From NCBI GenBank assembly GCA_035627515.1, contig DASPLQ010000012.1, forward strand, positions 455,269-519,268: 64,000 bases of DNA. Direction: 5' to 3'. Of this stretch, positions 60 to 23,668 are shown one piece after another. The notes beneath the pieces are model-generated. The model was not told the origin of the DNA, did no database searches, and saw nothing but the letters and a program-made list of their open reading frames with translations. Made by a program: the position numbers and the translations under genes. Numbering within the stretch: position 1 is the stretch's first letter; every line of letters starts with the position of its first letter. The DNA comes from Vitreimonas sp. (GTDB taxonomy: Bacteria > Patescibacteriota > Microgenomatia > UBA1400 > PJMF01).

Positions 60-2600
60 TTACAGTGGTCGTGACTTGCGCTCAATGTCAGTCCAAGTAG
101 GGTCGCCAGGACAGCGCCAGAATGAATCCTCATCCCAAGCTTCGACGGCGTATTTGCAGTAACTGACTTGGGTAGTTTTGCCATCGATTTGAAGATTCCC
201 GCCTTTGAGCAATTGAGTTTTGACTTTAGATGCATCGTATTTTTCATTGCTGCAGGGGTTTTTAGCGCTGTTGTAGTAGCCAGCAGCCCGATAGGCCTGT
301 TCATAGGTCCAGTTTTGAGACTCAGGAGCTTTGAGGCCGTTGGCATCAGCTTTACTGCGCAGCATCAGGGCTGCAAAGTGAATCGCGCCTTCGCTACCAC
401 CCTTATCTTTGCCATCGAAGGAACACAAGTTGCGTTCAGCATACGTGGCTGGTCCGCGGCCATGACAGACAGGGACGTTGATCTGCATCGGTCCTACGTC
501 ACCGGTGGAACTGATTTGACAGGAGACTTGTTCGCCAGGTGTAAAGGTTTTTGCTCCGCTATTCAAATAATAATCGTTGGCGTCGCCGCCTTCGATCGAG
601 AATAAACCGCGCAACACGAAGCCGGGCACACGATACTGCCGCGCCGCGCTACAAAAAGTATCTCGCAGTTTTTCTTTAGGTAATAACGTCACTTTCTGAG
701 GGCGATAGAGGGCTTCGCATGATTTGGGAGCGGTGCCGGGCAAGCTATTGCCTTCAGCGGGATCGGTGGTCAACTCTTCATTATCCTCGGCACTACTAGC
801 GGCACATTGGCGTAAGATAAAGGCTTCGTTGCGATTATCTGCGGTCTCTTCGCATTCGCGCAGGACAGCGTTCTGGTCACCGGCAGTCACCGCTTGCTGA
901 GTGGGATAAAAGCTCAAGCCTAAAGGATAACCTACAGTTAAGTCATCGACGTTGGCTTGAGCACCAGGCTCTTCGTAACAGGCATCGGGGTTTTCGGGGT
1001 TGTCGACACAATTGGGTTTGCGGACTTTACCGGCTTTGCCACCACCTCCTTCGAAGTTAATAGGTTGGTTTTGAGTAGAACGGATGCCTTCGCTAATCCG
1101 ATCTTGGTGTTCTTCAGAGTTGGAGATGGAGCTGGCTAAGACGCTTTCCATCGCTTCACGAACTTTGGCGGCATCACCATATTTAGGATCGATATTACTG
1201 AACATGATCAGAGTGACGGTAGGTTGCTCGGCAGGCTTGGTATTTTTACCGAGTACCACGCTACTCAGGAACGACAAACCTTCCCCAACTTTACTAAAGA
1301 TGCTGGAGGCTTTTTCTTTGACACTGGTATTAATATCAAGTTGGCCGCCTAACACTCTGTAGATCGTGCTTTTACCTTCCACGCTGCCCACTTCAGCTAC
1401 TTCTTTGACTTCTTCGTACTCGACGTTTTTGTCGGGTTGGCATTGCTCAGGGTTGATAGTATCCACGGTCATCCATGCCAGTGCTTCCTCAAGTGGCTCA
1501 CAATCCTCAGCATTACAATGCACAATGGGAGAAGCAAGACGGTTTTCTTCTTTTTGTTTCTGAAGTTCGACCTTGAGATCGTCCTGGAGACGGGCAGGCA
1601 ATAAGCTGTTGGCACTTTGACCCATACCAGTCTGGAAAAAGCCATCACCTTGGGCGTCTTGATTACTAATTGTCCCAGCAGGCATTTTGAGAGGCACAAT
1701 TTCCCAACTATCTTGTTGATTACCAGCCAGAGTACTTTTGAGCTTGAAGCGGAGTTTGCTCAGGGCGCCACCAGTTTGATCAGGGTCATCGACGACGTCA
1801 ATTTTGATACCTAACCAAGCTGGATAATACATCCGGTCAAAGTACTGCTTTTGTTCATACATCAGAATATTGCGGAGGGTAAAGAAGTCTCCAGGGAGTT
1901 GAGTTTGATCTTCCAGTTCAGATAACGGCTTAGCATAGTCTTTACAAGTAAAGCTGAGGACGTGGTAGCGTTCGAGAGCTTTAGTGGGCCACCAATCTTT
2001 GACGTTGGGGTAATCGGCATCCAAAGCACAGTCCTTAGGATTAACTAAACGATCACAATGATACTTGGTCATTTCTAAAAGATGCAGCGATTGTTTACAT
2101 TGAAACTCGGCATCGGTTTGGCGGAAAAAAGAGGGTGCAGCCACTAAGCCCTCAGGAGCAGATTTTAGCTCATCCTGGTCAGGATACTCGCTAGTGCGCA
2201 TATCGACGTCAGGTTTATCTTCACTTCGCCACAGCAGCGATTTGAGGCCTTCGGCGTTATCGAGCTTCAGCGATGAGTCAAAATCGACGCGCATATCAGC
2301 AGGAATAGCGTTTTTAATATCTTCGGAAATATTTTCGGTGTGAGTGACGACTTCGGAGCTGGCACAAAAAGCGGTGTAGCCTTTATCGCGCAGGTCACCA
2401 ATGATTTCATTGACTTGTTTACTATCAATGTTGAGATCTTGAAGATAATAATCATCAGGCCCGGGGGGAATACGAGGACTCTCAACTTGGGTTTCTTGAG
2501 CATACGCCACGGTGGAAGTGTTAAACCATATTATACCCAGCCCCATGACCACTAACAGCAGGGCAGTCCACAACACCGACCACAAACGATTTTTGCGCAC
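60..2600 (-). CDS. Large secreted/anchored protein (846 aa) with a C-terminal lytic transglycosylase (SLT-like, VirB1-like) domain. It is the last gene of the pilin operon.
   Basis: N-terminal signal anchor MRKNRLWSVLWTALLLVVMGLGIIWF. C-terminal region has SLT family-1-like motifs: catalytic-Glu context FSIEGG, about 30 aa, then GPMQINV (GLMQ-like), AAGYYNSAKNPC (AYNAG-like) and YCKYAVEAW. Same strand as the pilin array and immediately downstream of it. Confidence 0.5.
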   Translation of the reverse strand: MRKNRLWSVLWTALLLVVMGLGIIWFNTSTVAYAQETQVESPRIPPGPDDYYLQDLNIDSKQVNEIIGDLRDKGYTAFCASSEVVTHTENISEDIKNAIPADMRVDFDSSLKLDNAEGLKSLLWRSEDKPDVDMRTSEYPDQDELKSAPEGLVAAPSFFRQTDAEFQCKQSLHLLEMTKYHCDRLVNPKDCALDADYPNVKDWWPTKALERYHVLSFTCKDYAKPLSELEDQTQLPGDFFTLRNILMYEQKQYFDRMYYPAWLGIKIDVVDDPDQTGGALSKLRFKLKSTLAGNQQDSWEIVPLKMPAGTISNQDAQGDGFFQTGMGQSANSLLPARLQDDLKVELQKQKEENRLASPIVHCNAEDCEPLEEALAWMTVDTINPEQCQPDKNVEYEEVKEVAEVGSVEGKSTIYRVLGGQLDINTSVKEKASSIFSKVGEGLSFLSSVVLGKNTKPAEQPTVTLIMFSNIDPKYGDAAKVREAMESVLASSISNSEEHQDRISEGIRSTQNQPINFEGGGGKAGKVRKPNCVDNPENPDACYEEPGAQANVDDLTVGYPLGLSFYPTQQAVTAGDQNAVLRECEETADNRNEAFILRQCAASSAEDNEELTTDPAEGNSLPGTAPKSCEALYRPQKVTLLPKEKLRDTFCSAARQYRVPGFVLRGLFSIEGGDANDYYLNSGAKTFTPGEQVSCQISSTGDVGPMQINVPVCHGRGPATYAERNLCSFDGKDKGGSEGAIHFAALMLRSKADANGLKAPESQNWTYEQAYRAAGYYNSAKNPCSNEKYDASKVKTQLLKGGNLQIDGKTTQVSYCKYAVEAWDEDSFWRCPGDPTWTDIERKSRPL

Positions 2601-2629: not shown

Positions 2630-3040
2630 TTATATGGTTAACTTGAACATCGTAAGACTGGGGATGCCAGTGAAGGCGGCAATCAAGTTTAAGATGATGA
2701 AAGCGCTCAGGGCAACGACTAAGCCCACAACCGCGAAGGTGATGGTATTGCGCGCTGCATCAGCGCCTTTTGGATCACTGCCTGAAAGCATGTAGCGAAA
2801 ACCACCAATAATAATCATCACAAAGCCTGCTAACCCAATCAGAGTCAGAGCAATGGACAAAATGTTAGCAATTAAACATTGCAGACCGAGAAAGGTGGCA
2901 ACATCACCCGCCCCAGGAGTGGCGGTGCGATCGGCAATACAGACGCCTGACCAAGCCTTAGTTTGGGCGGCGACAGGTAAAGGGAACATTAATGAGGCGA
3001 CAGTTAGAAGGGGGAGGAAAAAACTCAATTTTTTTAGCAT
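2630..3040 (-). CDS. T4SS-type pilin (TrbC/VirB2-like CPR pilin family), paralog 1. The ORF track extends to 3082, but the internal Met gives a canonical signal peptide.
   Basis: Signal peptide MLKKLSFFLPLLTVASLMFPLPVAAQ, two hydrophobic helices and the conserved core GGFRYMLSGSDPKGADAARNTITFAVVGLVVAL. Confidence 0.6.
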   Translation of the reverse strand: MLKKLSFFLPLLTVASLMFPLPVAAQTKAWSGVCIADRTATPGAGDVATFLGLQCLIANILSIALTLIGLAGFVMIIIGGFRYMLSGSDPKGADAARNTITFAVVGLVVALSAFIILNLIAAFTGIPSLTMFKLTI

Positions 3041-3059
3041 GCACGGTCGATTATACTGC

Positions 3060-3521
3060 TTAGCCTCTGATAGTTCGAGCACTGTCTAAGACATCATTTA
3101 AGTTATTGAATCCTAAAAATCTCACAATCAAGTTGAGGATCGCGTATGACGCTGCCACGATGATCAAGCCAATGACGGCGGCTGTCATTTTACTGCGGGC
3201 TTTTTCAGTGGCACCCTTGTCACCACCAGACATAATCCAGTCAAAAGCGGCTGAGATTAAATAGAAAAAGACCAGTAAAGCCGAGATTACCATCACTAAA
3301 CTCAGGACGGAGTTGAGCCAGCTGCCAAAATCGACGGCAAAACCTCTGGGTAACTCGATGTCACGTGTGCCTAAGTGAAGATTGCCGCGCTGGTTGGTGG
3401 TAGCAGCTGAATTACTAGCTTCACCTGCAGTCGTTTCGGTCGTAAGGTACAAAGCGGCGCCATCTTTTTTAGTGATGACTTGGCCGGGTTGGTTAATTTT
3501 AGTAGTAGTGAGTCCTGACAT
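3060..3521 (-). CDS. T4SS-type pilin-like protein, paralog 2.
   Basis: Core WIMSGGDKGATEKARSKMTAAVIGLIIVAASYAIL with two TM helices. Close paralog of 4146-4553 at both protein and DNA level. Confidence 0.6.
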   Translation of the reverse strand: MSGLTTTKINQPGQVITKKDGAALYLTTETTAGEASNSAATTNQRGNLHLGTRDIELPRGFAVDFGSWLNSVLSLVMVISALLVFFYLISAAFDWIMSGGDKGATEKARSKMTAAVIGLIIVAASYAILNLIVRFLGFNNLNDVLDSARTIRG

Positions 3522-3857
3522 GATAGTGTTTTCTTGATAACGCTTTAATGCGCTTTTGAAACATATTATACCAGATCAGAGAAGATCAAATTTTTTGAAT
3601 AGGGCGGAGAGTCATAAAGTTAAATTTTTCGGCAATTTACTCAAGAATCAAGGAAGTTGATCTTCATTGAGAGTGTGATTGAAATTCTCACTCAAGTCGC
3701 GTTACAAAATGTACATGTCTCAGGTTCAAATTTACATAGATGTTCAATGAAGGATGGTCAATTCTCTGTTATTCCTGAAAGTGAAGATTAATTTAATTTT
3801 CTTACATTTATGCAAGCTTAACGCAAGAATTGTCCGATATATTCAGAAGTTAGAGAT

Positions 3858-4076
3858 ATGCAAATTAACCACCACCCCCAAGATAAACGAATTGTTGCCA
3901 GCATTACTGAGTTAAGAGAAAACTTATTTGAGCTGGTACTGCGTGTGCATTATGAGGAAAGAATTGTGCTTATTAAACGTCATGGCAAAGTTATTGCCAT
4001 GCTGCGCTCATACAATGTTAATCCTTATCGACCGAGAATCCCACCTTGGTTTATTCATAAATACGGTTGGAAGTAG
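3858..4076 (+). CDS. Small protein with weak Phd/YefM-antitoxin-like features, sitting alone in a gap of the pilin array.
   Basis: 72 aa. SITELRENLFELVLRV...IVLIKRHGKVIAML resembles the Phd/YefM N-terminal fold. No partner toxin ORF seen downstream. Confidence 0.25.
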   Translation: MQINHHPQDKRIVASITELRENLFELVLRVHYEERIVLIKRHGKVIAMLRSYNVNPYRPRIPPWFIHKYGWK

Positions 4077-4086
4077 CCACACAACT

Positions 4087-4120
4087 AAAAACCCCGCCCG
4101 GTGCTAAGCACAAGGCGGGG
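4087..4120 (-). terminator. Intrinsic terminator for the minus-strand pilin gene 4146-4553. It lies between convergent genes.
   Basis: Perfect 7-bp GC stem CCCCGCC/GGCGGGG (4092-4098 and 4114-4120) with a 15-nt loop. On the minus strand it is followed by a T5 run (complement of A 4087-4091). Confidence 0.6.
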
Positions 4121-4145
4121 TATAGATTCACACTAAACTAATACA

Positions 4146-4553
4146 TTAGTTATTGTTAATAGTCTTAGGACTGTTCAAAACGTCGTTGAGGTCAGTGAAG
4201 CCTAAGAAGCGCAACACCAAAGTCAAGATAGCGTAGGAAGCAGCCAAAATGATTAAACCGATGACAGCAGCCGTAATTTTACTGCGAGCTTTTTCGGTTT
4301 GGCCTTTGTCACCACCTGAAGTGATCCATTCGATACCACCCCAGATTAAGTACATGAATACTAACAATGCTGCGATCACCATCACGAAACTCAAGACGGC
4401 GTTAAGCAACGTACCGAAGTCGGTAGCGAAACCGCGTCCGGGATCGACGTTGGTAGTAGCCAAGTCCAAAGCGAAAACAGTTCCAGCAGTCATGGCTAAA
4501 GCACTGACGCTAGCGGGAACAGAGAGGGCTAATTTTTGTAAAGTTTTTTTCAT
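4146..4553 (-). CDS. T4SS-type pilin-like protein, paralog 3. Start moved to the internal Met MKKTLQKL; the ORF track gives 4592.
   Basis: Signal peptide MKKTLQKLALSVPASVSALAMTAG. Core WITSGGDKGQTEKARSKITAAVIGLIILAASYAIL. Confidence 0.6.
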   Translation of the reverse strand: MKKTLQKLALSVPASVSALAMTAGTVFALDLATTNVDPGRGFATDFGTLLNAVLSFVMVIAALLVFMYLIWGGIEWITSGGDKGQTEKARSKITAAVIGLIILAASYAILTLVLRFLGFTDLNDVLNSPKTINNN

Positions 4554-4597
4554 TTTACTATTTCTCCTTATGTAGCTGGTTATATTATACATAACAA

Positions 4598-5197
4598 TTA
4601 ACAGGAATTAAAGTCATAGCCTGGTTTTTGTTTGGCAGCGCCACCAATACAATAACAAGGGTCATAGTGATTATATGATAAATGCTTATCAGCTTTGTTG
4701 CAGCGAACCATGGCTGCGCCATCGGTGCAGTAGCCACCCGCTCCACCATCGTTAGACATCTGCCCAACCGTGCAACCACCGCCACCACCAGTCCCACCGC
4801 TGCCTCCGGTTCCGCCGGTGCCAGTTGTAGCTGGAGCTACGATAGCTGCTGGGGTAGAAGACCCTCCCACACCAGCGCCAAAGTTAACAACATTAATGCC
4901 TAAGAAATTTTGTAATACTACAAACAGTGCGATGGTAGAGGCTAAAACGATGATGCCAATGATCGCGCCCGTGATTTTATTACGAGCTTTTTCAATTTGA
5001 CCTTTGTCGCCGCCGGCTGTGATCCAGGTGATCGCACCCCAGACTAAATAGAGGAGGACTAACAGGGCTGCCACCACCATCACGCCACTCAGGACACTGC
5101 CCAGAAAGGCTCCGAAACCGTCACCAGCTTTGGTAACACTGCCATCAACGCCCGGAAGAGCGCCTTGGCCTGCTTGGTAAAAATTGAGTTCATTCAT
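4598..5197 (-). CDS. T4SS-type pilin-like protein, paralog 4, with a Gly-rich and Cys-rich C-terminal extension.
   Basis: Core WITAGGDKGQIEKARNKITGAIIGIIVLAST, followed by a (GGT/GGS)n tract and a Cys-rich tail (CTVGQ...CTDG...CNKADKH...CYCIGG...NSC). Confidence 0.55.
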   Translation of the reverse strand: MNELNFYQAGQGALPGVDGSVTKAGDGFGAFLGSVLSGVMVVAALLVLLYLVWGAITWITAGGDKGQIEKARNKITGAIIGIIVLASTIALFVVLQNFLGINVVNFGAGVGGSSTPAAIVAPATTGTGGTGGSGGTGGGGGCTVGQMSNDGGAGGYCTDGAAMVRCNKADKHLSYNHYDPCYCIGGAAKQKPGYDFNSC

Positions 5198-5212
5198 AAT
5201 TACTATCTTATG

Positions 5213-5623
5213 TTAAATAGTTGGAATAGTTAATCGCAAGATATCGAAATTATTGCCAAAGAACGCCCGACTGATGAAGCCGATGATGAAAAACGATCCT
5301 ACCAATAACACCATACCAATGATGGCATTAGTGATTTTATCGCGGGCTTTTTGAATTTTGCCGCTATCACCACCAGCGTAAATCCACTCTAAACCACCCC
5401 AGAGGAAGTAAATAATCACAGCCAGGGCTCCGACCGCAATCAAACCGCGCCAAATGACGATGAAGTAGCTCATAAAAGTAGCGCCACTTTCAGCTTGAGC
5501 GGGGTTATTCCCTAATTGGCCGGTGACAGGATTTTTGATGCCTTCGAAAGCAGCTTGAACCAGAGAACTGGAACTCATAAATGACAAGATGGCGAGCAGT
5601 GGAGCTAAAAGATGTTTTTTCAT
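5213..5623 (-). CDS. T4SS-type pilin-like protein, paralog 5.
   Basis: Signal peptide MKKHLLAPLLAILSFMSSSSLVQA. Core WIYAGGDSGKIQKARDKITNAIIGMVLLVGSF. Confidence 0.6.
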   Translation of the reverse strand: MKKHLLAPLLAILSFMSSSSLVQAAFEGIKNPVTGQLGNNPAQAESGATFMSYFIVIWRGLIAVGALAVIIYFLWGGLEWIYAGGDSGKIQKARDKITNAIIGMVLLVGSFFIIGFISRAFFGNNFDILRLTIPTI

Positions 5624-5625
5624 GG

Positions 5626-6018
5626 TTAACGATTATTAATGATATCTAGTAATGATTGTCCTGGTGACAAGACATCAATGCCGACGATGCGGCCAATTAA
5701 GCCCATCACACCATAAGCAGCCACAATGATAATTAAGCCCATCACACCTTGAATCATTTGATCGCGAGCTTTACCCACCTTACCACTGTCTCCGCCAGCA
5801 GCAGTCCATTTGAAAGCACCCATCACAAAGTAAACGATGAAAAACAAGGCTGCTAACACAGTCAAAAAGCCTAAAATTTGTGACACAAATAACTCGAGGT
5901 TTTTCAACGCGGTTTCGCGACCGACAGCTGAGTCACCAAATTTAGTGATGTTGAAGTTATCAGCGGCAGGAGTAATGCCTTTTCCAAAGTCAGCAGTTTT
6001 GGCAAGTAACGTTAACAT
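5626..6018 (-). CDS. T4SS-type pilin-like protein, paralog 6.
   Basis: Core FKWTAAGGDSGKVGKARDQMIQGVMGLIIIVAAYGV with two TM helices. Confidence 0.6.
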   Translation of the reverse strand: MLTLLAKTADFGKGITPAADNFNITKFGDSAVGRETALKNLELFVSQILGFLTVLAALFFIVYFVMGAFKWTAAGGDSGKVGKARDQMIQGVMGLIIIVAAYGVMGLIGRIVGIDVLSPGQSLLDIINNR

Positions 6019-6019
6019 A

Positions 6020-6394
6020 TTACGGTCCTTTAATAATCGGATTCAAGATAAAGCCAGCATCATCGAACACAATCAAGCCAATTAAGGCCGCCACGGTGTA
6101 CGAAGTGACAATTAAAATTAAACCAATCACGCTCATGGTGAGACGCTCACGAACTTTGTTGTGAGCACTGGCATCACCGCTCGCAGTAATGTACTCGTAA
6201 CCAGCTAAGATAAATTGAAACATCACCCAGATACCTGCGATGACGGTGGCAACGCGAATAAGGGTGGACATAAAGGCTAAAATACCGATTTGATTACCGC
6301 CTGTGCCACTATAGAGTTGGACACCGGGTGGTGGGGAAACTTTACCAAAGACATTAGCAGGAGGAGCGGCGAGGAAAAAAGAAAAGAGCGACAT
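6020..6394 (-). CDS. T4SS-type pilin-like protein, paralog 7. Start moved to the internal Met MSLFSFF; the ORF track gives 6475, which overlaps the upstream gene.
   Basis: Signal-like N-terminus MSLFSFFLAAPPANVFG. Core YEYITASGDASAHNKVRERLTMSVIGLILIVTSY. Confidence 0.5.
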   Translation of the reverse strand: MSLFSFFLAAPPANVFGKVSPPPGVQLYSGTGGNQIGILAFMSTLIRVATVIAGIWVMFQFILAGYEYITASGDASAHNKVRERLTMSVIGLILIVTSYTVAALIGLIVFDDAGFILNPIIKGP

Positions 6395-6423
6395 GATGTG
6401 AATTATACCATTTTTTATGATGG

Positions 6424-6783
6424 CTAGAACATAATCTCTTGGCCAATGACAATTTCTACCACCTGAACTATCCAATAGGCAATAAACATGATGATATAAC
6501 CAGCCGCGGCGGTAGTGATAATGGATTTGGCTTCATCCTTACCTTTACTACCACTTTGAATAAACTTAAAGCCAGCATAAATAATCAACAAAAAGAGAAT
6601 AATGCCAGCTAACACAAACAAGTTGCTGACCAAAATATTGATGAGTTGAGTGGGTTGAGCGTAAACGCTTTTAACTGTGGCTTTGCCTGGACCAAGTGTC
6701 AAACAATTGCCCAGATCAATTCCCGAGACACCGGGGTCACACCCAGGGGCAGCAGCTAATAAACTTAACGTAGACAACAGCAT
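6424..6783 (-). CDS. T4SS-type pilin-like protein, paralog 8. It is the first gene of the array.
   Basis: Signal peptide MLLSTLSLLAAAPGC. Core FKFIQSGSKGKDEAKSIITTAAAGYIIMFIAYWIVQVVEIV. The C-terminus resembles the orphan pilin at 16159-16599. Confidence 0.55.
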   Translation of the reverse strand: MLLSTLSLLAAAPGCDPGVSGIDLGNCLTLGPGKATVKSVYAQPTQLINILVSNLFVLAGIILFLLIIYAGFKFIQSGSKGKDEAKSIITTAAAGYIIMFIAYWIVQVVEIVIGQEIMF

Positions 6784-6832
6784 ATGTGTGATATTATAAG
6801 TCTTAACTGCTTATTTACCAAACAGGAAACGC

Positions 6833-7387
6833 ATGACTGCTCAGTTGGATACAGATAAGATATTGCTCTCTCGATTAAAAGCGGGTGATCCAGCCGCTGT
6901 CCAAGAGTGGTTCCAAACCTATCACGCTAAGTTAGTCCGTTTTATAGCTGCTAAAGTTACCAATTCCACTGATGCCGAAGAATTAGCTCAAGAAACCTTC
7001 ATCAACTGCTTGAAACATTTACCGTTATTCCGAGGTGAGTCGCAAATTTGGACGTGGATGCAAAGTGTAGCCCGTCATGAAATTGCTGATTACTTCCGTA
7101 AAAAATACGCTAAAAAAGCGTTAAATGTTTTACCTCTCAGTGAGTTAATTGGCACTGAGCCGGTGGCTGATGCTCACGAACTAGCTGAAAAAGTCAAAGC
7201 CACTCTCAAAAAAATGACAGCCGAAGCCCAAGAATTATTGTGGCTGAAGTATGTCGATGGCAAGAAAGTTGCCGATATTGCTCTAGAGTTGGGGCGCAGC
7301 GTCAAAGCCGTGGAGTCAGATTTATTTAGAGCTCGTGTGGAGTTTAAGGCACTATATGCCGAAATCGATACTGCTGCCACCCGCTGA
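6833..7387 (+). CDS. ECF (sigma-70 family, sigma-24-like) RNA polymerase sigma factor, divergent from the pilin array.
   Basis: Region-2-like ETFINCLKHLPLFRGESQIWTWMQSVARHEIADYFRKK. Region-4 HTH LLWLKYVDGKKVADIALELGRSVKAVESDLFRARVEF. Confidence 0.75.
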   Translation: MTAQLDTDKILLSRLKAGDPAAVQEWFQTYHAKLVRFIAAKVTNSTDAEELAQETFINCLKHLPLFRGESQIWTWMQSVARHEIADYFRKKYAKKALNVLPLSELIGTEPVADAHELAEKVKATLKKMTAEAQELLWLKYVDGKKVADIALELGRSVKAVESDLFRARVEFKALYAEIDTAATR

Positions 7388-7553
7388 TTTTTTGGGTAAA
7401 CTGCAAGCTGAGGCTGCGCGGCAAGCTCGGCTGCATGAACATCGTTTTTTCCCCCCGCAACTGGATTTTTTAACCTCGTTTATTGGTCGATATCCCTGGC
7501 AAACGAGTGGAGCCTTAGCGTTGCTAACGGCTTTAGTATTGGAGTTGCTGTGA
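7356..7553 (+). CDS. Small hypothetical protein with a C-terminal hydrophobic segment, overlapping the sigma gene 3' end. Possible anti-sigma factor. Start uncertain.
   Basis: ORF in another frame overlapping the sigma stop. Single TM ALALLTALVLELL. Position immediately after an ECF sigma gene is typical for anti-sigma factors. No motif support. Confidence 0.2.
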   Translation: MPKSILLPPADFLGKLQAEAARQARLHEHRFFPPQLDFLTSFIGRYPWQTSGALALLTALVLELL

Positions 7554-7903
7554 CAAATCGATCTTTACTAAGCTGGAGCTTTTCACTGCTTTATTCCCTG
7601 GCACAAATTACACAGGGATTGTTATTGCACCCTTACCAAACGATGCAGTCTCTGGTTCAGGATAAAGTTTTTGTGTGGATGACACTATTGCCGGCAGTGG
7701 TGTTAGCAATGGTCACAGTTGGATGGCGGTTTGTGATCGTGCCGGTAGTACGATTGGTTTTTTCCTGCCAGGCCACTGGCTTTATTGGATGCGATTTTCT
7801 ACCCTTTATTTCGAATACCCTGACATTCTTCTGTATTTATTGGCAGGTGCTATTGATTTATTTGCTGTTTAGATTTGATTGGGTGTTTGAAAACGACACC
7901 TAA
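7550..7903 (+). CDS. Hypothetical polytopic membrane protein.
   Basis: 117 aa with 3-4 hydrophobic helices. Start overlaps the previous ORF by 4 nt. Confidence 0.35.
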   Translation: MTNRSLLSWSFSLLYSLAQITQGLLLHPYQTMQSLVQDKVFVWMTLLPAVVLAMVTVGWRFVIVPVVRLVFSCQATGFIGCDFLPFISNTLTFFCIYWQVLLIYLLFRFDWVFENDT

Positions 7904-7935: not shown

Positions 7936-8337
7936 CTACGCAGCTTTGGGCACAGCGGCAGATGACGGTAAATGCTGTTTGATTTTGGCTAAAATATCTT
8001 CTAACGACATATCGCTTTTGACGATGTAATCAATAGCCCCGAGTTTTAAGCCCTTATCAATATCTTCACGTTGCCCTAAGTTCGAGGCGATAATGACAGG
8101 AATTTTTTTCCAGGTAGGATTACTACCAATATCAGTTAAGACTGAGAAGCCATCTTTAATCGGCATCATTAAATCTAATAAAATGACATCGGGTTGGCTA
8201 ACTTTGAGCGCCTCAATCGCTTCATTGCCATCGGCAGCTAATACTACTTCGTAACCGGCTTTAGCTAACTTTACGCGATAGGCATTGCCTAAAAACTTAT
8301 CATCCTCGGCTACTAAAATCTTAAACATATTTACCAC
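7936..8337 (-). CDS. Stand-alone response regulator receiver (CheY-like REC) protein.
   Basis: ILVAEDD...(phospho-acceptor context)...VILLDLMMPIKDGFSVL...IPVIIASN...DYIVKS. Confidence 0.8.
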   Translation of the reverse strand: MVNMFKILVAEDDKFLGNAYRVKLAKAGYEVVLAADGNEAIEALKVSQPDVILLDLMMPIKDGFSVLTDIGSNPTWKKIPVIIASNLGQREDIDKGLKLGAIDYIVKSDMSLEDILAKIKQHLPSSAAVPKAA

Positions 8338-8349
8338 CCTTTTATTTTA

Positions 8350-8775
8350 TTAATTACTAGTTGCTACAACTGGTTGTTCATCTGATTCTTCTGAAGTAAT
8401 GAAATCTTTAATAATCGCGATAATTTCATCTAACCGGTACTCAGCTTTAAGCAAATATTTTTTTGCACCTAAAGCTAACATGTTATGCACTTTTTCTGGA
8501 TTAGCTGAATTACTGACCACAACTACCGGAATCTCACTCCAACGAGGGTCTTTTTTAAGCTCTTGCATAAAGGAAAGGCCATTCATATCTTTAAGATAAT
8601 AGTCTAGCCAGACAGCGTCAGGTAATTCATCAACATTACTCAGGTAGTCCACTGCTTGTTGGCCACTGGAACAAGATAAAACATCAATTCCCGTCAACTT
8701 GAGTTTTTTAGTGATAGCTTGTAGAAGTAAAACCTCATCTTCAACCACCATCACTGTAGGAAATTTTTTACTCAT
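8350..8775 (-). CDS. Stand-alone response regulator receiver (REC) protein.
   Basis: VMVVEDE...AVWLDYYLKDMNGLSFMQELK...IPVVVVSN...KYLLK. Confidence 0.75.
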   Translation of the reverse strand: MSKKFPTVMVVEDEVLLLQAITKKLKLTGIDVLSCSSGQQAVDYLSNVDELPDAVWLDYYLKDMNGLSFMQELKKDPRWSEIPVVVVSNSANPEKVHNMLALGAKKYLLKAEYRLDEIIAIIKDFITSEESDEQPVVATSN

Positions 8776-9560
8776 AACGAAGGTCTTTCTGTAACTACTA
8801 CTGGGTGGGTCGGAAAAGTTACGGTAAAGGTACTGCCTCTATTTTCTTGTGAATGAAACTCAATGGTAGCCGCTATCATGTCCACTAATAATTTAACTAT
8901 GTACAAACCCATCCCCGAGCCATCAGCTTTAGCCTTGATATTATCAGCTCTAAAAAACTTTGTAAACGTTTGAGACTGCTGGGTTAATGGGATTCCATAT
9001 CCGGTGTCTGTAATCTGCCATTGAATGTCGGCCGCCGTGCTTTTTAGTTTTACGGTGATCTGGCCATCAGCAGGGGTGTATTTAATGGCATTAGAAATCA
9101 GGTGCCTAAAAATAATCTTTACCACCTCTTCAGGATATGGCACTGGTGGCAGGTCGGTTTCATATTCCTCACTCACGTGCTGGTGCGTGTTTTTACCCCG
9201 GAGTTGCAGTTGTTCGGAAATGACTTGCTGTGAAAGGTGAGCCAGATTTATATTCTCCGGTTGGGGAAGTACATGGCCAGCTTTTAAGGTGGCAGAGTGC
9301 AAGAGGTGAGTCAGAACATCGCTGAGACGACGATTGCTGTCATAAATAGAGAGCACATGGTCGTATTGTTCAGGTGTGAGGGGGCCAATATCTCCTGCCA
9401 GTAACAGTTCAGTTAACCATGCCACAGATGAAATGGGGGTTCGTAACTGATGGGAGAGGTGAGTGAGAAATTCTAGTTGGGTACTATCGACGGTGGAGGA
9501 AGAGACGGACATATGATTGTGTGTGACGCGTGACCTACTTTTAATCCAGTGAGACCTCAC
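8772..9560 (-). CDS. Soluble sensor histidine kinase (HisKA + HATPase_c).
   Basis: H-box LSHQLRTPISSVAWLTELLL. N-box NAIKYTP. G-boxes DTGYGIP and GSGMGLYIVKLL. Confidence 0.8.
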   Translation of the reverse strand: MRSHWIKSRSRVTHNHMSVSSSTVDSTQLEFLTHLSHQLRTPISSVAWLTELLLAGDIGPLTPEQYDHVLSIYDSNRRLSDVLTHLLHSATLKAGHVLPQPENINLAHLSQQVISEQLQLRGKNTHQHVSEEYETDLPPVPYPEEVVKIIFRHLISNAIKYTPADGQITVKLKSTAADIQWQITDTGYGIPLTQQSQTFTKFFRADNIKAKADGSGMGLYIVKLLVDMIAATIEFHSQENRGSTFTVTFPTHPVVVTERPSL

Positions 9561-11406
9561 CTTTTTTAGCTATCATCCCAGTCACCGGCAAACTAAACCA
9601 AAAAGTAGTGCCCTTATTTTCTCCCGATTCAAACCAAATCTTTCCTCCAGATGATTCAATGACCGCTTTTACTAAATACAAACCTAAGCCAGTGCCATCT
9701 GACTCAACCTTGACAACATTTTCAGCCCGGAAAAACTTTTGGAAAACTTTATGTTGTTGTTCTTTAGGAATCCCATATCCAGAGTCAGTGACCTGCGAAA
9801 TGATTTGATCATCTTTTTTAGAAATGATGACCGTAACTTCTCCACCAGGTGGGGTGTACTTAATAGCATTAGTTAGTAAGTTCATGTAGACATGACTAAT
9901 TAATTGAGGATCCACATTTATGATAGGTAAGTCCTGATGAGCACTAATGATTAAATTGTGTTTTTTCTCTTGGACTTTTACGTCTAACTCAGTGGCTACT
10001 GTTTGGACTAATTTTAATAAATCAGTTGGTTTGGGATCGACAATAATGCGTCCTGACTCAATGCGCGAGATGTTCAGGAGTGAATTAACGAGTTGAATCA
10101 TGCGTTCCGTAGAGTCAGCAATGTTTTGGGCAAAGTCATGTTGTTCGGCTTCAAGTTTACCGGCATCACCAGCCAATAGCATCTCAGTGAACCATTTGAT
10201 AGCAGATAAAGGAGTACGGAGCTGATGGGAAGCTAGGGAAATAAACTCGGTCTTCATTCTATCGACTTCTTTTTCGTGCGTGATGTCACGAATGATCGTA
10301 ATCGTCCCAATGATCTCACCTTTTTTGACTACTGGCGTAGTGGTGATACTGACGTAGTGTTTATTGCTATCATAATCAATGACATAGCTGCCTTTAATTT
10401 GTTGACCGGTTTGAAGAGCTGTGCTAATTGGTTGAGCATCGGCGGGGACCAGTTGCTGTCTCTCATCAGTAAGGACCATGACGTCATTAATACGTTTACC
10501 TTCTGGATGAGGATCTTTGAGTTTGATGATTTCATGCAAGCGTTGATTAGTGAGCTGAATCCGACCTTCTTTATCAGTCACGATCATGCCATCACCAATA
10601 CTGACCAACATGGCTTCATCTTTTGCCTTCTCAGCTTCGATTTCAAGAATTTTAGTTTCCAACTGCCCGGTGCGTTCTTTAACTAAGGCTTCTAATTTAT
10701 CGCGAGTGGTGTCCACTTCGGCTCGCATTTTTTCAAAAGCAGTGGCCAACTCACCAATTTCATCATGAGTAGTAATAGGAATGCGAACTTTAAGGTTGCC
10801 CTTTTGCATTTCAAGTGCTGCTTCCTTCAAATGACGAATGTTACGAATCACTACTTGGTCAAGGAGAAGGGAAATCAGTACGTAGGCAATTACCATGCCA
10901 GCCAAAGTCAACAGCACCACAAAAATGATGAATTGATTCAAACGCTGAGCAGATTTGTCATTCGATAAAGCTAGGTGAGCGGCTGCCACTACTTTATTAT
11001 TAACCACTACTGGCGAAATGGCTTCTAGAACAGCCTCTCCCTCATGGTACTCATTTTTAATAGTTTCTATGCCATTAAAAGCGTTGTTAACTTCGTCAGC
11101 TTCATCTGCCGTTAATAAGGTTTCAGGCAAATTTTCAGTGGAGTAAATAACGGTATGGTCAGGTTTGAGTATTTGGGCAAAATTAACTTTCTCATCTAGG
11201 AGTGCTTCGAGCTTTCGCCGATCATTAGAGCTCTCAAAACTGAGATCACCACTTTCTAGAAGTGTAATGTAGGTAGAAATTCTATCAAATAACAGTTGTC
11301 TCTCAGTTTGGCTTTTGTTGCGAATGGTCATGCCACCAATCACCATCAGCACGATGAAGACGGGCACCAAAGTTAAAAGCAGAATTTTATTTTTAAGACT
11401 CAGCAT
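9541..11406 (-). CDS. Membrane-bound sensor histidine kinase (TM-sensor-HAMP-PAS-HisKA-HATPase_c).
   Basis: N-terminal TM LLLTLVPVFIVLMVIGGM plus a second TM after about 150 aa extracellular. H-box ASHQLRTPLSAIKWFTEMLL. NAIKYTPPGG, DSGYGIP and GTGLGLYLVKAVIE. Confidence 0.85.
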   Translation of the reverse strand: MLSLKNKILLLTLVPVFIVLMVIGGMTIRNKSQTERQLLFDRISTYITLLESGDLSFESSNDRRKLEALLDEKVNFAQILKPDHTVIYSTENLPETLLTADEADEVNNAFNGIETIKNEYHEGEAVLEAISPVVVNNKVVAAAHLALSNDKSAQRLNQFIIFVVLLTLAGMVIAYVLISLLLDQVVIRNIRHLKEAALEMQKGNLKVRIPITTHDEIGELATAFEKMRAEVDTTRDKLEALVKERTGQLETKILEIEAEKAKDEAMLVSIGDGMIVTDKEGRIQLTNQRLHEIIKLKDPHPEGKRINDVMVLTDERQQLVPADAQPISTALQTGQQIKGSYVIDYDSNKHYVSITTTPVVKKGEIIGTITIIRDITHEKEVDRMKTEFISLASHQLRTPLSAIKWFTEMLLAGDAGKLEAEQHDFAQNIADSTERMIQLVNSLLNISRIESGRIIVDPKPTDLLKLVQTVATELDVKVQEKKHNLIISAHQDLPIINVDPQLISHVYMNLLTNAIKYTPPGGEVTVIISKKDDQIISQVTDSGYGIPKEQQHKVFQKFFRAENVVKVESDGTGLGLYLVKAVIESSGGKIWFESGENKGTTFWFSLPVTGMIAKKGEVSLD

Positions 11407-11433
11407 TTATAGTGTTGGGTGAACTCACTTAAT

Positions 11434-13032
11434 TTATTCTTCGCCACTCGTTTCATTATCAATGGCCTTCATATCTGCCACGATCCGGTTGTAAGCTTGG
11501 TCAGCTGTCATTTTGCCATCTAAAACAGCCACTAAATATTGGCGGAAATCACGAGTCATCTTTTCATATTTTTCACCCAAAATGTAATCTACTGTTTTAG
11601 AATCGTAGACATTGCCACCATATTTATTACTAATGTAGCTAATGTATTTATCAAACTGGTCGGCTTGCTGTGAACTATCACCGGATTCACTTAAATTGCC
11701 TTTGATTCCGGAAGGGCCCTTAGCATAGCGAATCCATTTTTCAGCGTTATTGGGGGTAGAGTACTCCATCAATAAACTGACAGCCTCATCTTTAACTGGT
11801 GAATTTTTCATCACAGCAAACATGGGGTTATACCCACCCATATAGTGAGTTACTGGTTGGTACATAGGCATTTCAACCGGCACCATCTTCATAGTTTTGT
11901 CTTTATCGATGCCCCGCCAGTGACTATACATCCAACTAGCGCCGCCTGAATAAAAGACAGTTTTATTATCGAGAGGATAGTTGCGAGTAGGTACCCATTC
12001 TAAAGTTTCATACTCTGCTACTAAAGGTTCATATTGCGACATGTTCTCCAGCGTGGCGAGCGTTTTTCGCAGTGCAGCGCGTTTGGTCGGGGTGAGTTCT
12101 AGCTTTTTGAGTTCCGTAAGGTCAGAAATTTCTGACCGAAACAAACCTTGGAAAAGGTTAAAGGTAGCATTGCCGTAGCCTACGGTTGCACCTTTCTCAC
12201 TGCCATTGTCATAAAAGGCGCCATACTGTGTACCGTGTTGCTTGTTATATGCTTGAATAGCTTTCAGATAGCCAATGAGATCGGCGTCAGTCATGCCTTG
12301 TTCCTTAATTTTGATCCCCATCAAATCAGTCAATTCTTTGTTATAGAAAAAAGGTTGGTAAAAACCCTCGATAAAAGGTCCCGTAATGGTCCCATTCATA
12401 TGGTTGCGGAATTGCGGGTCACTTAAAACGAAGGGTTTCTGGGTTTCTTTAAATCCCGGGACAGTTTCAAAATCAACTAAGTGATTTTTAGCCCAGTTAG
12501 GATCACTAACACCTTCAGCAACATCACTATAGTTGAAAGGTTCAATCCAAATGACGTCCCACTTGATATCGCCACTTTTGATTTGATCAATAACGGCTTG
12601 CAGAGCTTCAGCCCGACCACCTGGGAAATCAACATTCCATTGCAGATTGACTTTAATATCAGGGTGACGAGCTTCAAATTCCCGGATAATTTCTAACATG
12701 TAATCTTCGCGTTTATCTTCGCCTTTCCAGTGGCCAATCATGTTGATAGTTTTTTGTTGGGTATTGGTGGCAGTTTGAGTGGTAATTTTTTGGCGAGTGG
12801 TGATTTCGTTATTGCAGAAAAAGGAAAAATAACCTAAACCAGCAAGGAGTAATACCAGTACTGTCCCGATGCCTAGTAGTGGCCATAACGTCAATCTACT
12901 TAAAAAGCTGCCTGAGTTAGTGTCAGCAGTGTCAGAATCTGGGAGTGAAGCTGATTCGTGAAGGTTTTGTTCGTTGGGTTTTGTTTCTAAAGAATAATCT
13001 TCTTGTGAAGGTGTGGGAAGGGCAGTGAACAT
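11434..13032 (-). CDS. Membrane-anchored extracellular solute-binding protein (ABC SBP family-1-like), probably a co-sensor or ligand receptor.
   Basis: N-terminal TM anchor LTLWPLLGIGTVLVLLLAGLGYF. Large extracytoplasmic domain with SBP-like layout (HWKGEDKREDYMLEIIREFEARHPDIKVNLQWNVDF...). No adjacent ABC permease or ATPase. Directly upstream of the sensor kinase in the same orientation. Confidence 0.45.
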   Translation of the reverse strand: MFTALPTPSQEDYSLETKPNEQNLHESASLPDSDTADTNSGSFLSRLTLWPLLGIGTVLVLLLAGLGYFSFFCNNEITTRQKITTQTATNTQQKTINMIGHWKGEDKREDYMLEIIREFEARHPDIKVNLQWNVDFPGGRAEALQAVIDQIKSGDIKWDVIWIEPFNYSDVAEGVSDPNWAKNHLVDFETVPGFKETQKPFVLSDPQFRNHMNGTITGPFIEGFYQPFFYNKELTDLMGIKIKEQGMTDADLIGYLKAIQAYNKQHGTQYGAFYDNGSEKGATVGYGNATFNLFQGLFRSEISDLTELKKLELTPTKRAALRKTLATLENMSQYEPLVAEYETLEWVPTRNYPLDNKTVFYSGGASWMYSHWRGIDKDKTMKMVPVEMPMYQPVTHYMGGYNPMFAVMKNSPVKDEAVSLLMEYSTPNNAEKWIRYAKGPSGIKGNLSESGDSSQQADQFDKYISYISNKYGGNVYDSKTVDYILGEKYEKMTRDFRQYLVAVLDGKMTADQAYNRIVADMKAIDNETSGEE

Positions 13033-16158: not shown

Positions 16159-16599
16159 TTAGAAAATGGTGACGCCGAGGATAATCTCCACGATTTGCAT
16201 GATCCAGTAAGCGCAGAATAACATCATGAAACCGAGAATAGCAGCGGTGATGCGCTGGCGACCTGAGTCAATCGATTTTTTAGATGCGGCTCCACTCAGC
16301 ATCTCGAAGCCACCCCAGACAATCATCACAAACAAAATCAGGCCGGCAATGGGGAAGGCAAATAATAAAAACCGAGAGATGAAACCACCGGGGGTGGAGA
16401 GTTCATTAGCAACCGGAGAGTTCATAAACTTCAAGGGGTTTAAGGCGTCGAGAGTAGCTTTATCAACTTTATCGAAGTCACGCAAAGCATCAGCAGGTGG
16501 GTTACTACCCATAGGACTTGCAGCCAAAATCTGGCTGGGTAAAAGCATTGCTAAAAAATTAAGTAGTATAGATAGAGCAATCAAAACACTTTTTTTCAT
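16159..16599 (-). CDS. T4SS-type pilin-like protein, orphan paralog outside the main array. Start moved to MKKSVLIAL; the ORF track gives 16614.
   Basis: Signal peptide MKKSVLIALSILLNFLAMLLPSQILAA. Core WGGFEMLSGAASKKSIDSGRQRITAAILGFMMLFCAYWIMQIVEIILG. Confidence 0.55.
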   Translation of the reverse strand: MKKSVLIALSILLNFLAMLLPSQILAASPMGSNPPADALRDFDKVDKATLDALNPLKFMNSPVANELSTPGGFISRFLLFAFPIAGLILFVMIVWGGFEMLSGAASKKSIDSGRQRITAAILGFMMLFCAYWIMQIVEIILGVTIF

Positions 16600-16603
16600 A
16601 GCT

Positions 16604-17659
16604 TTATGATCCAAAACCAGGAATTTGCAGGATACTAACTCCGATAAATTGTAAGCCGGCTACTGAGAATAATGTGAACAATAAACCTACCACTGCAGAA
16701 GTTAACATATCTTTGGCTTCGCTGGTGCGTTTAGGATCACCCTGACTGATAGCGAACATGAAGCCCGAACTTAGACTCAATAACACCGATGTCCCGGCAG
16801 ATACAGAAATGCCGATCTTGAGAATACTTTGAATTAAGTCAGTAGGATCAGTTGATAAACAACCCACAGCTGTCCAAATACCATCAGACTCTAAGCAGCT
16901 CGTGCATTTGCCATAAGCAGCAGTACTTTCAGGAATCTGTTTACAGAGTTCAAAGTCATAGAGTTCTGAGGAAGCTTTTGCCAGGTGGACACCACAAATA
17001 AATTCATCTTGGCCAGTGATATTGCTGCCTAAAATGCCTCTATTTCCTCGCAGTTCCAGCCGACTAATGTTGTCTTTTTTAAAGTTACCGCTTACGCCTT
17101 CCCACTCAGTGATTAAATAGCCATTATCCCAATTACACTTAAAATTTGAACTTTTACTAATTCCATCCCATTCACCTTCAAACACTTTTTCCAAACCATC
17201 TTCTAATTCACCGGTAACTGCTACACCAACAAAAGTACCTACACCAGGCACCGCAGTCCCAATGGTCCCACCAGCTATGGCTTCTAGTTCTTCAAAACTA
17301 TCATTAGTCCGTTGTTGGCTCACGTGACAGTTTTCAGTTTGTTCATCACTACTCGGTGTGGTGGCTAAGACGGCATATTCCAAAACCATACCTTTTGGTA
17401 ATTGGTGAAGGGTACTGGGTTTGCCGTCGTCCGTAGAACCTTGGGTTTTATAAATAATATCTCCGGTCTTAGTATCACGGAAAATAAAAGTACAATTACA
17501 GGCAGCAGGATTGGTGCTACAACCAAAATCACTCATGGCTGGAGTTTCAGCAAAAACGAAAGAAGGGGTTAGCAAAAGGACACTGGGTACGAAAAGAGCC
17601 ACCAAAAAACGAGCAAGTGAGCGAAAAACTTTTCTTGTCACCCCTGTATTGTATCGCAT
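16604..17659 (-). CDS. Secreted Cys-rich protein fused to a C-terminal pilin-like domain. Possible minor or tip pilin.
   Basis: N-terminal signal anchor, then an extracellular domain of about 250 aa with 14 or more Cys. C-terminus ISQGDPKRTSEAKDMLTSAVVGLLFTLFSVAGLQFIGV matches the pilin core with two TM helices. Confidence 0.5.
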   Translation of the reverse strand: MRYNTGVTRKVFRSLARFLVALFVPSVLLLTPSFVFAETPAMSDFGCSTNPAACNCTFIFRDTKTGDIIYKTQGSTDDGKPSTLHQLPKGMVLEYAVLATTPSSDEQTENCHVSQQRTNDSFEELEAIAGGTIGTAVPGVGTFVGVAVTGELEDGLEKVFEGEWDGISKSSNFKCNWDNGYLITEWEGVSGNFKKDNISRLELRGNRGILGSNITGQDEFICGVHLAKASSELYDFELCKQIPESTAAYGKCTSCLESDGIWTAVGCLSTDPTDLIQSILKIGISVSAGTSVLLSLSSGFMFAISQGDPKRTSEAKDMLTSAVVGLLFTLFSVAGLQFIGVSILQIPGFGS

Positions 17660-22542: not shown

Positions 22543-23634
22543 ATGTTCACTCCCACCTTTAATATCACCAATAACCTTCTGACCTACATTGCTCGTATCG
22601 AAGCGGCAAAATCCATGATTGATCATGCACCGCTGGTGCCAGCCTGGGAAGCAAAATTTCGAGATGAAGCTTTAGCTCGCACGGTCCATTTTGGGACCAA
22701 AATCGAAGGGAATGACCTGACCAAAGAACAAGCCCAGCAAGTAGTGCGTTTAGAGAGTTACTTGGATACGCAGGAAGTGGCACAGAAAACGGGCATCACG
22801 GCTCGTGAACGCGACATCCAAGAAGTCATTAATTATCGTAATGTGATTGTATGGATAGATCAACAGGATTTGAGTAATTCTCGCCGTTTATTTTCGGTAG
22901 ATACACTGAAAATGTTGCATACCTTGACTATGCAACGTTTAATTGATGAAAAGTATGTGGGACAGTATCGTGATAAACAAGTAATTGTTAAAAGCGCGAC
23001 TCATGGTCAAATAGTGTTCCGCCCTCCGGTGTCTGTGGAAATTCCTTATTTAGTAGAAGATTTTTTCACCTGGCTTAATGATGGTGACTCACAATTAATT
23101 CACGCCATTTTTAAAGCAGCCATCACTCATTACCAGTTGGTTTATATTCATCCTTTTATTGAAGGCAATGGTCGTACCGCTCGTGCCATGGCAAGCTTAG
23201 TTTTGTATGCTTCACAATATGATTTCAAACGCTTTTTCTCGCTGGAGCAGTATTTTGATGCCGATGTCGACCAATATTACCAAGCCCTGTTATCGGTTCA
23301 GCAAAGTCAGAATAATGACATGACCTACTGGTTGGAGTATTTTTGTTATGGCCTAGCGATTGAGATTGATAAGGTGAAGCAACAAGTACTTAAACTATCC
23401 AAAGATCTAAAATTAAAACAACAACTGGGTGAACAAGTAGCGTTATCAGAACGACAAATTATTTTATTAGAAATGTTACAAAACCAAGGTGAAATTACTT
23501 CGCAAGATGCCCAAACGGCGTTGCCCAATGTCTCTGTGGATACCATCTTACGTGATCTCAAAGATTTAATTACGAAACGCGTCATTGAAAAATCCGGTGT
23601 CACCAAAGGGGTGAAATATCGGTTGCGCGAGTAG
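22543..23634 (+). CDS. Fic/Doc family protein with a C-terminal winged-helix region.
   Basis: Canonical Fic motif HPFIEGNGRTARAMASLVL. 363 aa. Confidence 0.85.
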   Translation: MFTPTFNITNNLLTYIARIEAAKSMIDHAPLVPAWEAKFRDEALARTVHFGTKIEGNDLTKEQAQQVVRLESYLDTQEVAQKTGITARERDIQEVINYRNVIVWIDQQDLSNSRRLFSVDTLKMLHTLTMQRLIDEKYVGQYRDKQVIVKSATHGQIVFRPPVSVEIPYLVEDFFTWLNDGDSQLIHAIFKAAITHYQLVYIHPFIEGNGRTARAMASLVLYASQYDFKRFFSLEQYFDADVDQYYQALLSVQQSQNNDMTYWLEYFCYGLAIEIDKVKQQVLKLSKDLKLKQQLGEQVALSERQIILLEMLQNQGEITSQDAQTALPNVSVDTILRDLKDLITKRVIEKSGVTKGVKYRLRE

Positions 23635-23668
23635 ATAGCTAACTAGAAAGTATCTGCCCCATACTACT

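Follow-up and report, generated by a model that had tools for sequence, protein, structure and literature searches.

A tandem array of eight pilin-like genes lies on the minus strand at positions 2630-6783 of the stretch of DNA analysed here (the window; 64,000 nucleotides of contig DASPLQ010000012.1, assembly GCA_035627515.1), and the paralog types of which it is composed are old orthologous lineages that are held in a fixed order across related genomes. We consider it about an even chance (a probability of roughly 0.5) that these genes form a chromosomal array of the PF18895 family which is passed on vertically and whose products would together build one heteromeric surface filament or conduit, with a transglycosylase encoded alongside. 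The likely true starts give, from the first to the final gene, P8 (6424-6783, 119 amino acids (aa)), P7 (6020-6394, 124 aa from an ATG), P6 (5626-6018, 130 aa), P5 (5213-5623, 136 aa), P4 (4598-5197, 199 aa), P3 (4146-4553, 135 aa from MKKTLQ), P2 (3060-3521, 153 aa) and P1 (2630-3040, 136 aa). The open reading frame (ORF) of P7 reaches 6475 if a TTG start is taken, and the database protein P0003 has the 124-aa start; that of P3 extends to 4592 beyond the MKKTLQ start. The first-pass annotation of this DNA had described eight consecutive minus-strand genes, and the ORFs are indeed all present, but they are not consecutive: a stretch of 624 bp (3522-4145) interrupts the array between P3 and P2.

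Conserved order of the paralogs

The order of the paralogs was compared over 80 loci from GTDB species genomes. The loci were fetched via the alignment of the P1 subfamily (A3), so that a single clade was sampled, and extend no further than 10 kb to either side of a P1-type gene. Pilin-domain ORFs were called in all 80 loci and each was classified against the paralogs of the window. Complete arrays were present in 45 of the loci. These contain 6-10 genes and without exception follow the gene order of the window, namely P8, P7 (1-2 copies), P6, P5, the clade formed by P2, P3 and P4 (1-4 copies) and P1. As P8 and P1 delimited the arrays, the first and last positions are partly so by construction. 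The more distant loci of the Shapirobacteria type have a six-gene version, with weaker assignments.

The classification was clear for most slots, with a median best score against the median score for the second-best paralog of 106 versus 38 bits for P8, 102 versus 43 for P7, 110 versus 62 for P6, 116 versus 64 for P5 and 125 versus 49 for P1. P2, P3 and P4 could not be separated from one another (118 versus 100 bits). In an unsupervised single-linkage clustering P8, P7, P6 and P1 likewise fell into distinct clusters, to which each genome contributes one or two members and whose positions are fixed. The P8 type occupies slot 0 and the P1 type the last slot in 45/45 arrays, the P7 type is always found at position 1-2, and the P6 type follows directly after it. 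P5 remained joined to the P2/P3/P4 cluster, to which it may be linked by fusion proteins of the P5 and P4 types such as P0001. This protein, of 264 aa, combines a P5-type and a P4-type pilin domain; tandem fusions also occur at the P5 slot of three other loci (L032, L035 and L052), and P0007 (317 aa) contains three pilin domains.

The conservation extends to the segments that would be exposed. In P1 the N-terminal segment follows the pattern AQT-x-W-x-G-V-C...VATIQGLQC and includes two Cys residues that are invariant in the subfamily alignment (50-61% identity), and the other slots have consensus motifs of their own; two Cys are conserved in the N-terminal part of P8. The poly-Gly and Cys-rich extension that had been described for P4 was found as a Gly-rich linker followed by a C-terminal module with six Cys, and this tail recurs at the same slot elsewhere (58% identity over 89 aa in L036 and 52% over 75 aa in L031). 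Between genomes the pilin orthologues are 45-55% identical, which is similar to the value for the neighbouring sigma factor, and thus the pilins are not fast-evolving. The high divergence of the N- and C-terminal regions asserted by the first-pass annotation therefore applies between copies, where the alignment bears it out; within a slot the exposed segments are nonetheless conserved. The same annotation had left open whether the filament would be multi-subunit or variable. The colinearity of 45/45 arrays points to specialised, non-interchangeable subunits rather than to variable cassettes, so that the synteny favours the former and the fixed lineages speak against the latter.

Variation has nevertheless been the leaning of the published interpretation of such arrays. 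Quinonero-Coronel et al. (2025; PMC12102498) likened them to the amplification of VirB2 in Bartonella and Anaplasma and suggested versatility in host range. The copies would then be interchangeable and would serve to diversify the surface for different hosts or for evasion. In line with this, most pairs within the array are 19-37% identical, the N- and C-terminal segments are strongly unlike between copies, and the copy number of the P2/P3/P4 clade changes from 1 to 4 between genomes. Tandem VirB2-like genes are indeed common to both situations, but the Bartonella and Anaplasma paralogs are interpreted as variants in antigenicity or host range, whereas the types described here are orthologous and colinear in every complete array, fixed in position and conserved in their exposed segments; moreover, silent or partial cassettes were not seen.

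The DNA of the copies argues in the same direction. The closest pair, P2 and P3, is 69% identical at the protein level and 66.7% at the nucleotide level over 104 codons, synonymous differences affect 45 of the 72 codons for identical residues, and exact matches reach 11 nt at most. Throughout the array the repeats are ~70% identical and no exact match between copies exceeds 11 nt. It follows that the duplication is old and that there is no substrate for homologous recombination, so that neither the near-identity of P2 and P3 at the DNA level nor the recent duplication and openness to recombination deduced from it could be upheld. We consider a variation system improbable. The conserved, position-fixed paralog types argue for a division of labour instead.

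Family membership, topology and fold

All eight products match PF18895 (T4SS_pilin, where T4SS stands for type IV secretion system), with E-values from 1e-5 to 1e-9. Seven of them score above the gathering threshold (GA) of 26.6 bits, in a range of 28.9-38.4 bits: P3, the most canonical copy (38.4 bits), P1 (36.2), P6 (32.9), P7 (29.3), P4 (29.0), and P5 and P2 (28.9 each). P8 is 1.3 bits under the threshold (25.3 bits) and reaches 62.7 bits with a family hidden Markov model (HMM) that was built from the matches. Eight adjacent matches, with orthologues in 80 other loci, are far beyond chance, and the T4SS pilin identity proposed by the first-pass annotation was in this respect confirmed. Its further designation of the proteins as VirB2/TrbC-like was not borne out by PF04956: with all eight products searched, the sole match was P3 with 13.6 bits (E 0.08) against a cut-off of 27.9. 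A more consistent similarity was found to NF045849, the family of the pilin-like conjugal transfer protein Mbov_0395 from an integrative and conjugative element (ICE) of Mycoplasma. Seven of the eight paralogs match this profile (E 1e-7 to 5e-3) and cover positions ~5-78 of its 80. The best score, 31.5 bits, lies under the cut-off of 40, which indicates that the paralogs are related to, but not members of, that family.

Hydropathy revealed two strongly hydrophobic segments that flank a polar loop with 2-4 Lys/Arg in each of the eight products, which agrees with the hairpin of two hydrophobic helices proposed earlier and with the PF18895 core of ~70 residues with two hydrophobic helices and a short polar turn. 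For P3 the hairpin was predicted with confidence by AlphaFold2 from an alignment of 118 sequences: helices at 42-78 and 83-116 are connected by a four-residue turn, with a predicted local distance difference test (pLDDT) score of 90-98 over the hairpin, and the N-terminus is disordered in the model. Signal-peptide-like N-termini were recognised by eye in P1 (ending in AAQT), P3, P5 and a further pilin-domain gene that starts at 16159 (see below), and hydrophilic heads in P2 (60 aa), P4 and P6. The core motif of the first-pass annotation (W-x-x-x-GG-D...) was recovered as [S/A]GGDxGxxxKAR...IGLI in P2-P6 but is degenerate in P1, P7 and P8, and a single Gly is invariant across all eight paralogs in the alignment. 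A Foldseek search with the P3 hairpin gave no significant match (the Aeropyrum conjugative pilus, 8dfu, ranked eighth with E 2.6), and a profile of the eight paralogs had no match among PDB sequences; for so simple a predicted hairpin, fold searches are uninformative.

We use the label pilin on account of the architecture, the Pfam curation, the similarity to the ICE family and the published context taken together. The family name could be a misnomer, in which case the products would be small, Sec-dependent membrane or secreted proteins unrelated to type IV secretion. Such a function would agree with the separation of the array from VirB4 in the sampled clade and with the insignificant similarity to canonical VirB2, and the TM7x array was in fact first named a 'Sec secreted array' (PMC12102498). 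We nevertheless give this explanation little credence. The predicted pilin series of Southlakia epibionticum is located within an essential T4SS gene cluster and is itself essential (Wang et al. 2023; PMC10633639), and virB4 is near the pilin genes in 1135 of 1948 assemblies (PMC12102498). In addition, the similarity to the ICE conjugal transfer family is consistent across seven paralogs, and an enzyme with the predicted fold of a soluble lytic transglycosylase (SLT) adjoins the array, just as VirB1 adjoins VirB2 in virB operons.

A predicted transglycosylase linked to the array

The gene for this enzyme follows directly downstream of P1 (60-2600, minus strand) and encodes a secreted protein of 846 aa with a signal-anchor N-terminus. 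Its C-terminal 220 aa (residues 627-846, window 63-722) have a predicted lytic transglycosylase fold of the goose-lysozyme/SLT type, in which a conserved Glu of the catalytic type, within the sequence IEGG, is accompanied by the motifs G-x-M-Q and A-x-x-Y-N. The domain may fulfil a VirB1-like role; in canonical virB operons VirB1 is located directly before VirB2, and VirB1, VirB2 and VirB3 are adjacent. The protein had no match in Pfam, in NCBIfam or among PDB sequences, a comparison with its SLT_3-type counterparts by hhalign was not significant, and only the protein itself was matched in a word-indexed database. An SLT-fold C-terminus that escapes the profiles in this way implies a VirB1-like enzyme of the kind that profile-based surveys miss. 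The presence of such an array-linked enzyme weakens the conclusion, drawn in the literature, that the putative pilus can do without a homologue of VirB1 (PMC12102498).

Residues 45-410 of the 846-aa protein are homologous to the middle of proteins of 1,066-1,275 aa that follow the array elsewhere. These post-array proteins thus have a conserved core, which is combined with at least four different C-terminal modules across genomes. One of the modules is PF18896 (SLT_3), found above the cut-off in three loci (L008, L010 and L034). The module of the window type has eight distant homologues in an exhaustive search, all of them at the C-termini of similar large proteins. An RlpA/3D-like or SLT-like identity was considered for two other modules (A8 and A9) and was dropped, as profile searches against PDB gave no support. 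The swapping of C-terminal modules, as seen between the window gene and the related loci (L002-L054), is reminiscent of polymorphic effectors.

Additional pilin-domain genes and the proposed assembly

The family HMM revealed two more pilin-domain genes at 16159-17659, outside the part that the first-pass annotation had singled out; it had missed them. The ninth gene (16159-16614, minus strand) encodes a P8-like protein of 151 aa with a signal-peptide-like N-terminus, which scores 26.6 bits with PF18895, exactly the GA, and 70.3 bits with the family HMM. The tenth (16604-17659, minus strand) encodes 351 aa, in which a Cys-rich N-terminal ectodomain is fused to a C-terminal pilin hairpin (family HMM, E 1.2e-9). 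This protein has no match in Pfam, and homologues are present in 21 related loci. In related genomes the pair is located just past the sigma factor that adjoins the array. Cys-rich N- or C-terminal extensions also occur on the family members P0005 and P0020.

By analogy with VirB2, TraA and CedA and with Southlakia, the pilins would become embedded in the cytoplasmic membrane in such a way that the basic loop faces the interior and the two termini the exterior, and a VirB4-family ATPase, encoded elsewhere, would extract them from there. They would then assemble into one heteromeric filament or conduit, with the conserved loop along the lumen and the N- and C-terminal segments specific to each slot exposed. 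The P3-like clade may provide the bulk subunit, and P8, P7, P6, P5, P1 and the 351-aa ectodomain protein may take the roles of minor, initiator or tip subunits. The transglycosylase would open the peptidoglycan, either that of the cell itself or that of the host, for the filament. An analogy in organisation is offered by the type IV pili and the pseudopili of type II secretion systems, which also rely on several conserved paralogs that cannot replace one another and whose order in the operon is fixed: one bulk subunit in addition to initiator or tip subunits, some of which have extra domains. The analogy does not reach further, as fold and machinery are unrelated (a class III signal peptide, a single N-terminal helix, PilB/PilC).

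In its most specific form the proposal holds that the window encodes a fixed kit of pilin-like subunits, six or more in number and not interchangeable (from ten pilin-domain genes), for one heteromeric, T4SS-dependent filament or conduit, that dedicated tip or initiator subunits, including the Cys-rich ectodomain fusions, belong to it, and that the co-encoded transglycosylase, with its exchangeable lytic module, breaches the wall of the cell or of its host. This fuller version is tentative, and we regard it as less probable than the general one. If it were true, the link to the Mycoplasma ICE would imply that pilin-like subunits are an original part of the monoderm MPF_FATA lineage and not an acquisition from diderms.

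Several observations weigh against a filament or conduit. Homology in sequence to canonical VirB2 could not be shown: when a profile of the pilins from the Candidate Phyla Radiation (CPR; A4) was compared by hhalign with seven annotated VirB2/TrbC proteins from plasmids (A7; retrieved with a VirB2 sequence that served as a probe only), the probability was a non-significant 5% and only the signal-peptide end was aligned. No signal peptide of the classical kind was recognised by eye in P2, P4 and P6. The array is 27 kb away from the only VirB4/VirD4-superfamily ATPase of the window and none of VirB4, VirB3 and VirB6 adjoins it. A blastp comparison (E <= 1e-8) of that ATPase with the ORFs of the 80 loci, which reach up to 10 kb to either side of the P1-type gene, found no homologue. 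The major and minor subunit roles are pure inference. Finally, a filament of these proteins has never been seen in any Patescibacterium, and a recent review treats a pilus in this group as an intriguing possibility only (2025; PMC12857230).

The main rival to a filament is therefore a hetero-oligomeric complex that stays in the membrane as a ring, channel or platform and forms no pilus, comparable to the two-transmembrane (TM) proteins of the VirB3/PrgI type or to the Mycoplasma ICE protein. The best cross-family similarity is to NF045849, from organisms that have neither a wall nor a reported conjugative pilus, and the T4SSs of Gram-positive bacteria are generally without pili (PMC12102498; PMC10633639). 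Moreover, the predicted fold is a simple hydrophobic hairpin without a specific match to solved pilus subunits, and a fixed, stoichiometric set of paralogs would fit a defined complex equally well. The extracellular additions (the Cys-rich tail of P4, the 351-aa ectodomain and the tandem fusions) are nevertheless better suited to a surface structure, the adjacent lytic transglycosylase suggests that a wall is crossed, and both Pfam and the field class the family as pilins. On balance we think a membrane-resident complex unlikely, although it is clearly to be taken more seriously than the other alternatives, and prefer the heteromeric filament or conduit.

Relation to known systems

Much of the diversity of bacteria is accounted for by Patescibacteria, whose cells live attached to those of a host. 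In the sole genetically tractable species, Southlakia, the T4SS and the pilin series are essential for this lifestyle (PMC10633639). The question that arrays of this kind raise is how a wall-bearing monoderm builds a VirB2-type structure and why it would need so many pilins.

Tandem pilin arrays in Patescibacteria have been published (2023 and 2025), and the window is a new example of this known phenomenon. The survey by Quinonero-Coronel et al. covered 3,035 genomes with PF18895 and PF04956 and yielded 441 arrays of 2-11 pilins, which were commonest in Microgenomatia and Saccharimonadia and had a mean within-array identity of 25% with a maximum of 54% (PMC12102498). The window array corresponds to these in its PF18895 membership, its tandem arrangement, its low within-array identity and its class, and its eight genes are within the published size range. 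An array was defined there as two or more PF18895 or PF04956 genes that are in tandem or have one non-pilin gene between them, in a Patescibacteria genome which also encodes a VirB4. The window array corresponds to this definition, as it consists of eight genes with one inserted ORF (a single non-pilin interruption is sometimes present in the published arrays), has relatives in Patescibacteria and shares the window with an ATPase of the VirB4/VirD4 superfamily. It differs in that P2 and P3 are 69% identical over the 104-residue core, which is above the published maximum. More importantly, PMC12102498 stresses variability, whereas the clade studied here shows fixed orthologous slots and an array-linked transglycosylase; neither the fixed slot order nor the cryptic transglycosylase was found described in the passages of that article retrieved by term searches. 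What the window adds, the conservation of the slots and the cryptic transglycosylase, is modest and testable, and it does not contain a new kind of system.

A close parallel is found in Ca. Southlakia epibionticum ML1, a monoderm epibiont with about six divergent but structurally similar VirB2-like pilins (PMC10633639; PMC12857230). It likewise has no obvious relaxase or coupling logic, and lysozyme and peptidase genes are associated with its system. Its pilins, however, are located inside the VirB4/VirB6 cluster, whereas the window array lies beside a sigma factor and far from the ATPase. The virB1-virB2-virB3 arrangement of the Agrobacterium type (MPF_T) shares with the window a small pilin with two hydrophobic helices, the signal peptide of which ends in PAxAQ, and a neighbouring lytic transglycosylase. 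In contrast to the window it belongs to a diderm, has a single pilin gene and continues directly with VirB3 and VirB4, and there is no significant similarity at the level of sequence or profile. The Mycoplasma ICE protein, as the best cross-family match, comes from the monoderm MPF_FATA lineage that is thought to be the source of the Patescibacteria T4SS. It is, however, a single-copy protein on a mobile element, whereas the window array is chromosomal and its scores remain under the cut-off of the family.

Transcription units and genomic surroundings

The stretch between P3 and P2 contains, directly behind P3, an intrinsic terminator directed along the array (4086-4121, minus strand), in which a GC-rich stem of 13 bp is followed by UUUUU (-24.8 kcal/mol, z -2.8). 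On the basis of this terminator the genes probably form two transcription units, one from P8 to P3 and one with P2, P1 and the downstream gene, and the single operon of the first-pass annotation is thereby divided. The stretch also encodes, on the plus strand (3858-4076), a Phd/YefM-like antitoxin of 72 aa with sub-threshold matches to PF02604 (23.1 bits) and TIGR01552 (18.7 bits). This orphan ORF, which has no recognisable toxin partner, is an insert outside the pilin system. In the related arrays the listed pilin ORFs are mostly closely spaced, without a comparable gap.

Upstream of P8 a promoter-like sequence TTGGTA-17-TATAAT is present (6793-6821, minus strand), the -10 box of which ends 9 nt before the ATG. 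The window shares with more than 20 related loci (among L001-L078) a TATAAT located 6-10 nt upstream of the start codon of the first pilin gene, which suggests that P8 may be translated from a leaderless or near-leaderless mRNA made from a housekeeping-type promoter. The divergent neighbour is a sigma factor of the extracytoplasmic function (ECF) type (6833-7387, plus strand; matches to Sigma70_r2, r4_2 and ECF), and a sigma factor adjoins 33 of the 45 complete arrays. Control of the array by this factor was considered but looks unlikely, as the conserved signal before P8 is the housekeeping-type TATAAT. The sigma factor is part of a divergent module (6833-7903, plus strand) together with an overlapping ORF of 72 aa, which has its TM segment at the C-terminus and may encode an anti-sigma factor, and a multi-TM protein of 117 aa that has homologues in 33/80 loci.

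In other genomes a block comprising Nudix, isopentenyl-phosphate-kinase-like, UppS, two-pilin, SpoIID and RecF genes adjoins the sigma factor. In the window two response regulators, two histidine kinases and a solute-binding protein (7936-13032) part the sigma module from that block, and because of the arrangement elsewhere they look like a lineage-specific insertion.

The ATPase referred to above (33793-36129, plus strand) is a protein of 778 aa with an N-terminal TM segment and matches to DUF87 and TrwB_AAD_bind. Its matches to TraD, VirD4, CedD and VirB4_plasma are sub-threshold and confined to the Walker region, so that they do not distinguish VirB4 from VirD4. No VirB3 or VirB6 homologue was recognised near it. 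It is followed by an ORF of 567 aa without a family match, and the region of the two genes (33793-37835, plus strand) has the lowest GC content of the window (0.36 versus ~0.44).

The related loci and those pilin relatives that carry source names come from metagenome-assembled genomes (MAGs) of Woesebacteria, Pacebacteria, Shapirobacteria, Microgenomates or the 'Patescibacteria group'. All close homologues are thus in Patescibacteria MAGs, in agreement with the CPR-like genome assumed by the first-pass annotation, and we treated the source genome as a Microgenomatia-like CPR genome. Look-ups of proteins of the window by their exact sequence yielded no entry. The record itself is labelled 'Vitreimonas sp.', after an alphaproteobacterial genus, which conflicts with the Patescibacteria gene content and relatives. 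Records of related MAGs are often titled 'uncultured Pseudomonadales', and such taxonomic labels look unreliable.

A few other features of the window can be mentioned. Two large ORFs, of 1,070 aa (43508-46720, minus strand) and 671 aa (56080-58095, plus strand), have no significant match in Pfam or NCBIfam. The only tRNA gene encodes a tRNA-Ile with anticodon UAU (42414-42487, plus strand); the use of this anticodon for AUA is uncommon in bacteria, most of which use a lysidine-modified CAU tRNA. At 22543-25462 (plus strand) a gene for a protein with a Fic/DOC domain adjoins that of an ATP-dependent DNA ligase of the archaeal/eukaryotic type.

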